Source of the DNA: a virus
Taxonomy: Duplodnaviria; Heunggongvirae; Uroviricota; Caudoviricetes
Reading direction: 5' to 3' (one strand)
Virus record (IMG/VR): IMGVR_UViG_2703718818_000009
Length of the DNA: 6,707 bases
Below, piece by piece: positions 3,001 to 6,707 of this stretch (the stretch's first letter is position 1; every line of letters starts with the position of its first letter). The position numbers were made by a program.

Positions 3001-6000
3001 AAACGACAAGAACGATTGGTGGTATTGAAACCCGCATTAGCACACTGGATTCATCAACCAGTGAATCGCTTAATGAGGTCGACAAGCGCATCACTAAACT
3101 GGATAAAGAAGGCGGTGAGGCGTTTCTGGCAATGTGGTCAAAAAAAGCGGGAGTTGATGGTATCACTGCGGGGATCGGGATTGTCGCCGGAAAAGACAGT
3201 GAAGGCAGGCCTGTAAGTCAGGTTGCAATTTCTGCGTCGCAGTTGTTTGTCTTTGACCCGAACAACCCGGATAACACCGCCTATCCGTTTGCGGTATCAG
3301 GTGGCAAGGTTGTGATCCCGAAAGCGATGATTTATGACGCGGTGATTGAAACACTGGTGTCGCGGAAGGTTGTGGCGGATGAGGTAAAAGCCGGGGTAAG
3401 TATCACTTCGCCAGTTATCCGGAGTGCCGTTATTCAGAACGGAAACTTTCAGGTTGATTCTCAGGGTAACCTGAATATTGGAGGCCTTTTCAGTGTTACG
3501 TCACAAGGGCAACTGACAATTCGTTACTCTAATCAGAATGTAGGACTGGTGATCCGCAATGATAAAATTGAGGTTTATGATCAGAATGGACGACTGGCTG
3601 TTCGCATAGGCAGATTACGCTGATCAGGAGGTGAGTATTGGAATACGGTTTTGCCATTTATAACAGAAATAACGTTAATGTTACGGGCGTGCTGACTCCG
3701 GTATTTTTCCTGGACAGATTTACAGCGGAGTCTGGCTCAAAGACGTACACGAATAAACCCGACGGGAAATCATTGCAGGCTGTATGTTGTTTATTTCCCT
3801 GGAATAACGTATTTGCGGATCGGAAAGTACCGAAGATAACCATTAATGGCAATACGGTGACGTGGTCGAATCTTGAGCAGGGTATGGGATCTTATATTTA
3901 TACATTCTGGGGATAAGTGTCATGTATGGTTTGAGCATTATGAAGCCGGATGGCAGCGTATGGATAAGTCCAGGTTTTACGCCGCAGTGTCTGATCAACA
4001 AAGGCACCATACCGGCGACTGAAAAGTCTTTTTTTAAAACATCAATCCCGTCAGGCAAAAGTTGTTTTTTCTTTATCAGAACAGAGAAGAAGGCCGATGT
4101 CATGTACACGCATGAACAGATTGATGGATATCATGCACTAAGGCTTCATGTAATTGTCAGGGGAACGAACCCTGGTGTTACGACGGTTTATGCTTTCGCG
4201 AATATGGTTACTCCACCTTCTGAGTATGGTATCGCCATGTATAACCCGGACGGTGAGATGATTTATCATGGCGAAATGATGCTGCTTGACGCGAAGTTAA
4301 TACCTGTTGATATCAAATTTGAAAAGGACCTTGGATATCCATGCGCAATCATGCCTGCACTGGTCGGGTATTATAACTGGAAAAGAACTCCTTATGATCG
4401 ACCGATTTATACCACATCCACTGGTGCTACAGGAAATAAAATATATTCCTGTGAGCATTATTCCGGTGGTGCAACATGGGATATTCGAAAGCCGTATATA
4501 GATAAGGTCCTGGTTATTAATACATCAGTATATGATTAGTTGAAGCGAGTCTTTAATATTCATTTAAAATGTCTAAAAAGATGTATTATTAAAAAGTTTA
4601 GCGTGTTATCTGAATACAGGATATCTTAAATGAAGAGTATAGCAACACTGGTTGTGTGTGCAATCTCCGGGATTGCCTGTGTAAATTTATCTGCACATGC
4701 AGCAGAAGGAAACCATACAATTTCTCTGGGGTATGCGCACTTTCAGTTTCCGGGACTGAAGGATTTTGTAAAGGATGCGACTGCTCATAACAGGGAGACT
4801 TTCAGTCATTTCGTCAACAGAAACTACTTTTCTTCATTGAGCGAATATACAGATGGTCGGGTCAGTGGATATGAAGGCAAGGATAAAAATCCACAGGGCA
4901 TTAATATCAGGTATCGCTACGAGATAACGGATGATTTTGGCGTTATCACCTCTTTTACATGGACGCGTTCTCTCACTAACTCACAGACATTTATTGATGT
5001 GCAGTCAGCCGATCATACCAGGAAGATTAAGAATCCGGCAGCTTCTGCCAGAACGGATATCAGGGCGAATTACTGGAGTCTGTTAGCGGGGCCTTCATGG
5101 CGGGTTAATCAGTACATGAGTTTATATGCGATGGCAGGGATGGGCGTTGCTAAAGTTAGCGCTGACCTGAAAATTAAGGACAATATTAACAGTAGTGGCG
5201 GATTTTCTGAAAGCAACAGCACGAAAAAAACCTCCCTTGCGTGGGCTGCAGGTGCACAGTTTAACCTGAATGAGAGTGTTACACTGGATGTGGCTTACGA
5301 AGGTTCCGGCTCTGGCGACTGGCGCACGAGTGGCGTTACTGCTGGCATTGGCCTGAAATTCTGACCTGTATCCGGTAACCGTTTACTACCCGCTGTGATG
5401 GCGGGTTTTTTATTGCCCGTACAGGGCAAAAACCGTAAATTATGCGTGGGTGCCTTTCGGCTGATGGTAAGCGTACAGCCTGAACCGTCTGGTCAGAATC
5501 TGACGAATTAGACAAAGTGGTGTCCACCAAATAAGTAGTGGGAACCAAAGTATCAGATATGCAGAAAAATGTGACTCCCGGCAGGCGAAAAGGCTGCCCT
5601 AATTATCCTCCCGAATTTAAACAGCAGCTCGTTGCTGCCTCCTGTGAACCCGGGATATCCATCTCAAAACTTGCTCTTGAAAATGGCATTAACGCCAATC
5701 TGTTGTTCAAATGGCGACAACAATGGCGCGAGGGAAAACTGCTATTACCTTCTTCAGAGAGCCCCCAGCTACTTCCTGTGACTCTCGATGCCGCTGCCGA
5801 ACAGCCAGAATCGCTCGCAGAGGCCCCGGAAACCCTCAGTATCAGCTGTGAGGTAACGTTCCGGCACGGGACGCTCCGCTTCAATGGCAATGTCAGCGAA
5901 AAGCTCCTGACTCTGCTGATACAGGAACTGAAGCGATGATCCCGTTACCTTCCGGGACCAAAATTTGGCTGGTTGCCGGTATCACCGATATGAGAAATGG

Positions 6001-6707
6001 CTTCAACGGCCTGGCTGCGAAAGTACAAACGGCGCTGAAAGACGATCCCATGTCCGGCCATGTTTTCATTTTCCGGGGCCGCAGCGGCAGTCAGGTTAAA
6101 CTGCTGTGGTCCACCGGTGACGGACTGTGCCTCCTGACCAAACGGCTGGAGCGTGGGCGCTTCGCCTGGCCGTCAGCCCGTGATGGCAAAGTGTTCCTTA
6201 CGCAGGCGCAGCTGGCGATGCTGCTGGAAGGTATCGACTGGCGACAGCCTAAGCGGCTGCTGCCCTCCCTGACCATGCTGTAAATCTCTTTATCCTGGTT
6301 GTCACAGAATAAGCCCGGTAAAATACGGGCTTATGAACGACATCTCTTCTGACGACATCTTCCTGCTGAAACAGCGCCTGGCCGAACAGGAAGCGCTGAT
6401 CCACGCCCTGCAGGAAAAGCTGAGCAACCGGGAGCGCGAAATAGACCATCTGCAGGCGCAGTTGGATAAACTCCGCCGGATGAACTTCGGCAGTCGTTCC
6501 GAAAAAGTCTCCCGCCGTATCGCACAAATGGAAGCCGATCTGAACCGGCTTCAGAAAGAGAGCGATACGCTGACTGGTAGGGTGTATGACCCGGCAGTAC
6601 AGCGTCCGTTGCGTCAGACCCGCACCCGTAAGCCGTTCCCTGAATCACTACCCCGTGACGAAAAGCGACTGTTGCCTGCGGCGCCGTGCTGCCCGAACTG
6701 CGGCGGT

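Follow-up and report, generated by a model that had tools for sequence, protein, structure and literature searches.

In lambda, the genes stf and tfa come after lom. In the mRNAs of the hok family, the 5' element 'tac' is the partner of the 3' element 'fbi'. Chromosomal hok/sok loci that are inactivated by IS elements have been reported (PMC5416894; PMC3562002), and, in the passage of PMC5416894 that cites Pedersen and Gerdes (1999), IS186 is placed beside hokC/gef in E. coli K-12. The disruption of Stx-prophage genes by ISEc8 is known as well, for example from stx2A::ISEc8 in strain 9000 (PMC6776261). The target duplications of IS66 elements are 8 bp long (PMC6778807).

We analyzed a stretch of 6,707 nt from a tailed virus (the window), the last part of which, from position 5467 to position 6707, consists of the left 1,241 bp of ISEc8, a known E. 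coli element of the IS66 family. The element is known, and its insertion site is new. It agrees with ISEc8 of O157:H7 and other STEC in the identical 1,241 bp and in the GTAAGCG terminus, and tnpA, tnpB and tnpC follow each other in the same order, with the same ATGA overlap; the location within an Stx-type prophage is shared with stx2A::ISEc8 of strain 9000 (PMC6776261). The only difference from ISEc8 elsewhere is the insertion site, which is the lom-hok spacer here, in contrast to stx2A or other sites. Very likely, ISEc8 transposed into this spacer of a 933W-type Stx prophage, cutting the predicted hok leader.

The K-12 case is similar in that the IS adjoins the Hok frame without entering it and disturbs an mRNA end element that regulation requires. 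However, the K-12 element is situated downstream of the frame and takes away the 3' fbi, at a chromosomal locus and with another IS family, whereas here ISEc8 would affect the 5' end of a prophage-borne locus, with loss of the promoter and the pairing partner. The resemblance to the lom-stf-tfa region of lambda is that a tail-related gene block closes with a gene of the Lom family that has a terminator of its own, but here the virion module resembles that of podoviruses, the fibre genes are located upstream, and hok, not stf and tfa, belongs 3' of lom.

Identity and left boundary of the element

The following parts of the element were assigned in the window:

5467–6707, + strand: left part of ISEc8, from the identity to and the boundary of independent copies; it continues past the end of the window
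5467–5488, + strand: left terminal inverted repeat (GTAAGCGTACAGC...), from the end-to-end comparison of the L001 copy
5538–5939, + strand: accessory gene tnpA (Pfam HTH_Tnp_1, 1.6e-12; NCBIfam NF047595, 6.5e-28)
5936–6283, + strand: accessory gene tnpB, 115 aa (Pfam TnpB_IS66, 1.2e-38; NCBIfam NF033819, 3e-35)
6333–6707, + strand: 5' part of the transposase gene tnpC, 125 codons (Pfam LZ_Tnp_IS66, 1.6e-15)

Both the presence of an IS66-family element at 5467–6707 and its left boundary at 5467, as given in the original prediction, were confirmed. Over all 1,241 bases the nucleotide identity to many E. coli copies is 100%, the genes have the domains of the IS66 family, and the name ISEc8 is that of the RefSeq label of the identical copies ("IS66-like element ISEc8 family"). 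At least 80% of this part of the window was covered in 3,622 records, and the number of ISEc8-like places per E. coli genome has a median of 3 and a maximum of 32. When positions 4600–6707 of the window were used as a query, copies at unrelated sites (H31–H38) began to align at query base 868, which is window position 5467; the similarity of independent ISEc8 copies to the window ends exactly there.

The left inverted repeat, tnpA, tnpB and the 5' part of tnpC are all intact. The full length of ISEc8, 2,442 bp, was taken from the complete copy in locus L001 (strain SCPM-O-B-7615, NZ_CP144926.1). The sequence GTAAGCGTACAGC at window position 5467 equals the 13 outermost bases at either end of this copy, the inverted repeats of which match at 13 of 13 and then at 18 of 22 positions, and the terminus GTAAGCG is present at the left repeat of the window. 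The product of tnpA has 133 aa if translation starts at the GTG at 5538 and 126 aa if it starts at the ATG at 5559, and annotations use both starts; the stop codon of tnpA and the start codon of tnpB overlap as ATGA. In full copies tnpC encodes 512 aa, and the full-length homologue in L001 matches NF033517 at 1.2e-137. The domain DDE_Tnp_IS66 is recorded for an IS66-family transposase in locus L008, whereas only the first 125 codons of tnpC are contained in the window.

Gene order of the host prophage

To the left of the element, three features adjoin the insertion:

4630–5364, + strand: lom-like gene for an outer-membrane beta-barrel protein, 244 aa (Pfam Ail_Lom, 1.8e-32; relatives annotated as Ail/Lom)
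5388–5411, + strand: intrinsic terminator of lom, from a terminator scan and the sequence
5459–5466, no strand assigned: GGCTGATG, predicted left copy of the 8-bp target-site duplication, from the empty site and the sibling ISEc8 duplications

The lom-like gene is whole and is left untouched by ISEc8. Its terminator consists of an 8-bp stem with a 3-nt loop at 5388–5406 and an overlapping T-run at 5406–5411. ISEc8 starts 52–55 bp after the T-run, depending on the choice of the run end, in agreement with the position of 53 bp behind the lom terminator that had been proposed, and the 8 bp at 5459–5466 read GGCTGATG, as had also been stated.

The element sits not in lambda but in a short-tailed, Stx-converting prophage of the 933W type, with the Stx1c phage phiSTEC1589 as its nearest relative. 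Positions 1–5467 of the window are 100% identical to phage phiSTEC1589-Stx1c (PQ600364), and the best matches are Stx-converting short-tailed phages. The virion module of the prophage comprises an N4-gp56-type capsid, a P22-type portal and an SU10-type adaptor; such N4/P22-like parts were found around lom instead of a lambda-like (siphovirus) morphogenesis module. Upstream of the window lie genes for a tail fibre (collagen/Phage_fiber_2) and a DUF4376 protein. In all 20 uninterrupted contexts, and in phiSTEC1589-Stx1c, lom is followed about 230 bp further on by a Hok/Gef gene, and the same order, lom and then hok, is present in L001, L002, L038 and the annotated phage record L003. After hok, the 20 contexts have a gene for a YadA-like adhesin, the relatives as a whole either such a gene or another small ORF, and, further on, small ORFs and a gene for an LPD-domain protein of about 2,794 aa. 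Side tail-fibre genes directly 3' of lom, which would characterize the lambda arrangement, were found in none of the uninterrupted relatives that were read.

The predicted hok leader at the insertion point

In the uninterrupted phage, a 46-aa ORF matches HOK_GEF at 4e-8, above the cut-off; in the IS-bearing copy this ORF lies off the window. Two parts of the upstream region of hok are predicted within the window:

5413–5441, + strand: candidate weak hok promoter (-35 TTGCCC at 5413–5418, 17-bp spacer, -10 TAAATT at 5436–5441), inferred
5448–5466, + strand: first 19 nt (GGGTGCCTTTCGGCTGATG) of a predicted hok-type toxin mRNA, from Rfam, folding and conservation

The candidate promoter was assigned only by its position and by the conservation of the -10 hexamer, the pattern TAnAnT being conserved in seven diverged hok loci, and it falls short of the 9-of-12 rule used in the sigma-70 promoter scan. 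In scans of this kind, a crude test, no sigma-70-like promoter for hok or Sok passed on either strand. An equally crude search for a mok-like overlapping frame revealed no other-frame ORF of 20 aa or more across the start of hok.

Three lines of evidence were used to predict where the hok mRNA begins. A full-length match to Rfam RF01794, which was found by a permissive search only and falls below the gathering score (36.4 versus 59 bits; E = 1.8e-6), begins in the uninterrupted phage at the base equivalent to window position 5448; at the gathering threshold, four related loci gave no Rfam matches. In the predicted fold of the 356-nt RNA, nucleotides 1–17 pair with the 3' sequence CAGCCGAUAUGGCACCC, both in the MFE and in the centroid structure (z = -7.6). 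Homology with diverged hok loci extends from about 20 nt upstream of the predicted start as far as the end of GGCACCC, and the 5' stretch hardly varies among seven hok loci. Both ends are conserved across these seven loci, the 3' side of the end pairing has only G-U-compatible changes, and no compensatory double changes were found because the 5' side is invariant. Separately, L001 has an uncompensated G-to-A change at +3 of the hok leader.

With this 5' end, ISEc8 would sit 19 nt downstream of the predicted start of the hok mRNA, and the hok promoter and the 5' 'tac' element would be parted from the toxin frame by the element. The hok toxin of the prophage is most likely silenced or deregulated, as judged from this model of the transcript, although read-through out of ISEc8 could still express hok. 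The tail functions of the prophage should be unaffected. The probable silencing of hok may alter how stably the prophage is retained; beyond correct annotation, the importance of the insertion is small. For the annotation, the element is to be named ISEc8 and the prophage an Stx-like podovirus prophage of the 933W type, not a lambda-like one, and no loss of tail fibres is to be deduced.

The target site and the origin of the junction

The empty site reads ...CCTTTCGGCTGATG followed directly by GCTGGAGGG, with the insertion point between the two, and it is present in 25 loci overall, including L002 and L003; GGCTGATG occurs there once, in ...CCTTTCGGCTGATGGCTGGAGGG. Two sibling insertions of ISEc8 were found in the region. 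In L001, the element lies 11 bp upstream of the window site, with the duplication GGATGCCT, and after it the sequence resumes without loss and continues into hok. In L002, it lies within lom, with the duplication TATTAACA. Both duplications are 8 bp long, and neither insertion is associated with a deletion. Given duplications of this length at two neighboring sites in this prophage type, GGCTGATG is the 8-bp target expected for the window. Relative to the ISEc8 copy of the window, the L001 copy has 8 SNPs over 1,241 bp and the L002 copy has 5 SNPs, and therefore the three insertions are regarded as independent.

Judged by the two siblings and by the behavior of the family, with the right end located beyond the window, the event would have been a simple cut-and-insert in which GGCTGATG was duplicated and nothing was deleted. 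If so, the sequence past ISEc8 should resume with GGCTGATG-GCTGGAGGG... and lead into hok. The 2,442-bp element would end with ...GCTGTACGCTTAC, followed by GGCTGATGGCTGGAGGGAGAACC, and the right flank would be GGCTGATGGCTGGAGGG.

ISEc8 adjoins lom in only 2 of the 340 complete-genome records that contain at least 80% of window positions 1–5466. Neither the left junction of the window nor the predicted right junction (a synthetic query) had a match among 5,426 complete E. coli genomes, and the exact patterns of both junctions were not found in IMG/VR. A degenerate pattern for both junctions had no matches in the GTDB species representatives and 20 in the JGI metagenomes, all of which were other ISEc8 sites and not the window junction. 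Look-ups of the exact proteins (Lom and a 563-aa protein) led to 20 places, all uninterrupted and none with the window junction, and a scan of 48 loci did not reveal its right junction.

It had originally been proposed that the locus belongs to a lambda-like, partly decayed prophage, in which stf and tfa were due after lom and may have been separated or deleted by the IS. The presence of a Lom-family gene, a protein with a Phage_Tail_Tip domain encoded upstream, and an unrelated lambdoid prophage (L035) that has a tail-fibre gene after gpJ and hok are all compatible with this proposal, but it is very improbable. The uninterrupted relatives all have the order lom and then hok, none of them with stf or tfa at that place, and on this gene order the expectation derived from lambda was rejected. 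In addition, the fibre genes lie upstream, and the capsid and portal are N4/P22-like. A separation or deletion of side-fibre genes is contradicted as well, as none belong there and as the sibling insertion in SCPM-O-B-7615 took place without loss of sequence. Nor does the window give an indication of decay: the 5,466 bp to the left of ISEc8 show no defect in comparison to the phage record and are identical to a phage that was deposited as a complete genome.

Two further explanations concern the junction itself. The left junction could be real and ISEc8 could have been rearranged later, by recombination between copies, adjacent deletion or inversion, in which case the right side would not be the hok locus, the duplication would be unmatched, and part of the prophage might be missing. 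The ISEc8-like places in E. coli genomes, up to 32 with a median of 3, offer copies between which recombination can occur. Deletions that left IS66 elements with 8-bp flanks that no longer match have been documented (PMC6778807), and the window stops within ISEc8. However, both siblings in the region are simple insertions with matching duplications, and positive evidence for a rearrangement was not found, so that this course of events is unlikely. An assembly artefact, that is, a lom flank misjoined to the repeated IS at a site that is actually free of it, would be in line with a window that ends within a multi-copy repeat, as contigs from short reads often do, and with an exact junction that was found nowhere else in the collections searched. 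It is nevertheless extremely improbable, since the terminal repeat begins exactly at the join, beside an unduplicated target, which is the product of a real transposition and would not be expected for a random chimera. Furthermore, the independent insertion of ISEc8 that a finished genome carries at a distance of 11 bp indicates a permissive site.

The simple insertion into the lom-hok spacer, which we prefer, has its closest counterpart in SCPM-O-B-7615. The two insertions agree in prophage type, spacer, orientation and the position within the predicted 5' end of the hok mRNA, and differ in that ISEc8 is found after +8 of the predicted transcript in SCPM-O-B-7615 and after +19 in the window. 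These two independent insertions share their orientation and are separated by 11 bp; a third is 275 bp away in lom. The second insertion hints at a preferred or selected site, and it is possible, though doubtful, that the first 20 or so nucleotides of the hok transcript of 933W-type Stx prophages are a recurrent target of ISEc8. Recurrent targeting could arise if lysogens are under selection to disarm a type I toxin carried by the prophage or, alternatively, if the IS66 transposase prefers this structured, terminator-proximal DNA. The repeated insertion of ISEc8 into the hok leader is a mild curiosity.

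The ISEc8 element

Over all 1,241 bases from position 5467 to its end, the window shows 100% identity with many E. coli loci. RefSeq labels these 'IS66-like element ISEc8 family transposase' and annotates tnpA and tnpB as accessory genes there; at least 80% of the region 5467-6707 is covered in 3,622 records. This identity confirms the IS66-family assignment of the original prediction, and the element is the already known ISEc8. With window 4600-6707 as the query, the copies at unrelated sites (database matches H31-H38) all begin to align at query base 868, that is, at 5467, and none extends further to the left; therefore, the left boundary of the IS is fixed at the predicted base. 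The full-length ISEc8 of strain SCPM-O-B-7615 (L001; NZ_CP144926.1) comprises 2,442 bp, with GTAAGCGTACAGC common to both ends and 18 of the first 22 positions matching, and its full-length transposase matches the IS66 transposase model at 1.2e-137. The window contains the following parts of ISEc8:

5467-5488, left repeat
5538-5939, tnpA (HTH_Tnp_1, NF047595)
5936-6283, tnpB (TnpB_IS66, 1.2e-38; NF033819), its start overlapping the tnpA stop as ATGA
from 6333, first 125 codons of the transposase gene (LZ_Tnp_IS66)

Phage context of the insertion

Left of the IS, all 5,466 bases agree at 100% identity with phage phiSTEC1589-Stx1c (PQ600364.1) and with the sequence of three complete E. coli genomes. 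Part of the window is matched by 200 phage records, nearly all of them Stx-converting phages of E. coli or Shigella. The gene order, read from annotated and gene-called relatives, starts with a P22-type portal, an N4-gp56-type major capsid and an SU10-type adaptor, followed by a collagen/Phage_fiber_2 tail fibre (678-794 aa) and a DUF4376 protein, the end of whose gene occupies window 1-195. Then come the window genes, namely, a 541/563-aa protein, a 422-aa Phage_Tail_Tip protein, 92-aa and 205-aa proteins, and Lom. Hok/Gef follows, and most relatives then have a YadA-like protein, several small ORFs and an LPD-domain protein of ~2,794 aa. The host phage is a short-tailed 933W-type Stx phage, not a lambda-like siphovirus. 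The original prediction had expected the side-fibre genes stf and tfa after lom and proposed that the IS may have separated or deleted them, consistent with a partly decayed prophage. Neither claim was borne out, given the identity to phiSTEC1589-Stx1c and that lom is followed by hok in all 20 uninterrupted contexts read, with the tail-fibre genes of the relatives located upstream of the window. The tail-fibre and decay reading is wrong, and nothing like stf or tfa is to be expected there in a 933W-type phage.

The large ORF 5' of the tail-tip fibre gene (667-2358), which lacks a Pfam match, is 563 aa long in some records (ATG at 667) and 541 aa in others (start 66 nt downstream). In the PQ600364.1 feature table, the product names seem to be out of register with the genes ('virulence determinant Bor' stands on the Lom gene, 'endopeptidase Rz' on the 205-aa ORF and 'terminase large subunit' on the YadA-like gene) and are unreliable as annotation. 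In ERZ26120531 IMG_VR_18932 (L044, 1-9705), different phage types meet at a mosaic junction: the gene block of the window, which runs from the DUF4376 protein via Lom and hok to the giant LPD protein, adjoins a Mu-like baseplate, a Mom gene and an invertase module, in place of the head module of N4/P22 type.

The lom-hok spacer and sibling insertions

The uninterrupted site, CTTTCGGCTGATGGCTGGAGGG, is present in 25 of the 48 fetched loci, including those of two finished genomes (L001 and L002, strain CEC13002) in which ISEc8 sits elsewhere; the IS junction of the window was found in none of the 48. In L002, ISEc8 (9593-12034) lies within lom, at the window equivalent of 5191|5192, with the duplication TATTAACA; the lom-hok spacer is intact and reads ...GCGTGGGTGCCTTTCGGCTGATGGCTGGAGGGTGAACC..., as does phiSTEC1589 across the site of the window, and the hok ATG lies 128 nt beyond GGCTGATG. 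In L001, ISEc8 (9857-12298) lies at the equivalent of 5455|5456, 11 bp upstream of the site in the window, bordered by GGATGCCT on either side, and the sequence runs on into hok with nothing lost. The IS of the window differs by 8 SNPs from the L001 copy and by 5 from the L002 copy, and therefore the three insertions are independent. Among 340 complete-genome records carrying the region, only 2 have ISEc8 beside lom.

By analogy with these siblings and because the IS66 target duplication is reported as 8 bp (PMC6778807), the event in the window would have been a simple insertion with duplication of GGCTGATG (5459-5466). A later IS-mediated rearrangement at this element is improbable, and keeps some weight because the right half of the IS, the right repeat and the second GGCTGATG lie beyond the window and the junction is absent from all collections searched (5,426 complete E. 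coli genomes, IMG/VR, GTDB representatives, JGI metagenomes and the fetched loci). Insertion of ISEc8 into Stx-prophage genes is on record, for example as stx2A::ISEc8 (PMC6776261), and the novelty is confined to the insertion site alone.

All three ISEc8 insertions share one orientation and fall within ~275 bp at the 3' end of lom and the hok leader in one prophage type, two of them in what is predicted to be the 5' end of the hok mRNA. For ISEc8, this region could be a hot spot or a site favoured by selection. That two insertions of the same orientation lie 11 bp apart hints weakly at a target that is preferred or selected, weakly because the second came from a search for neighbours of the first. 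In the same prophage type, a different IS66-family element (TnpA 141 aa, TnpB 116 aa, transposase 537 aa) is inserted in CP027672.1 (L042/L008; L042 3006-5422), where it truncates a 187-aa gene of the head-tail connector region. IS21-family elements break the region 3' of hok in L007 and, in L010, the gene for the giant LPD protein.

The predicted 5' end of the hok mRNA

The 46-aa ORF 3' of lom belongs to the Hok/Gef family (profile match 4e-8). In a permissive search of the uninterrupted phage, the Rfam hok leader model RF01794, which is hok-sense and terminates at the hok AUG, was matched over its full 157 nt from the base equivalent to 5448, with 36.4 bits (E = 1.8e-6), below the curated cut-off of 59 bits; a search at the gathering level gave no match. 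In the predicted 356-nt RNA starting at this base, nt 1-7 (GGGUGCC) and 10-17 (UCGGCUGA) pair with the 3' CAGCCGAUAUGGCACCC, and the fold has a z-score of -7.6 versus shuffles. This would be the end-pairing established for R1 hok mRNA, between the 5' 'tac' and 3' 'fbi' elements, by which mRNAs of the hok family stay inert until their 3' end is processed. Diverged hok loci were taken from P2-like prophages, lambdoid prophages and a site beside a gene for a type B L31 ribosomal protein; their alignment with the phage locus extends from ~20 nt upstream of the predicted start through the last base of GGCACCC. Across these loci, the 5' GGGTGCCTTTCGGCTGA is near-invariant (one base is missing in one locus) and more conserved than the Hok coding sequence, and a -10-like TAnAnT lies 6 nt upstream of the predicted start. 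On the basis of the Rfam match, the end-pairing fold and this conservation, the hok mRNA is predicted to start at window 5448, with 5448-5466 as its first 19 nt. One promoter candidate was noted:

5413-5441, candidate weak hok promoter TTGCCC-17-TAAATT, which fails the rule of the scan tool

Simple tests detected neither a mok-like frame nor a Sok promoter, and the compared hok loci contain no compensatory double changes for the 5'-3' pairing. Both duplication copies in L001 (9849-9856 and 12299-12306) carry a G-to-A change at predicted mRNA position +3, which is therefore older than the ISEc8 insertion; no change in the 3' GGCACCC partner compensates for it.

The IS in the window would cut off the remaining hok transcript from its promoter and its 5' pairing element, and the L001 insertion would separate the same elements after predicted nt 8. 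Most likely, hok expression would be lost or deregulated by the IS in the window. Chromosomal hok loci with a neighbouring IS that disturbs mRNA end elements are already known (PMC3562002; PMC5416894, citing Pedersen and Gerdes, 1999). In a lambdoid prophage (L035, NZ_CM132922.1, 1-794), a Hok/Gef gene lies directly between gpJ and a gene for a tail-fibre N-terminal domain, the position of lom in lambda, and locus L048 has a hok gene just 5' of a phage_tail_N fibre gene, besides another hok after lom.
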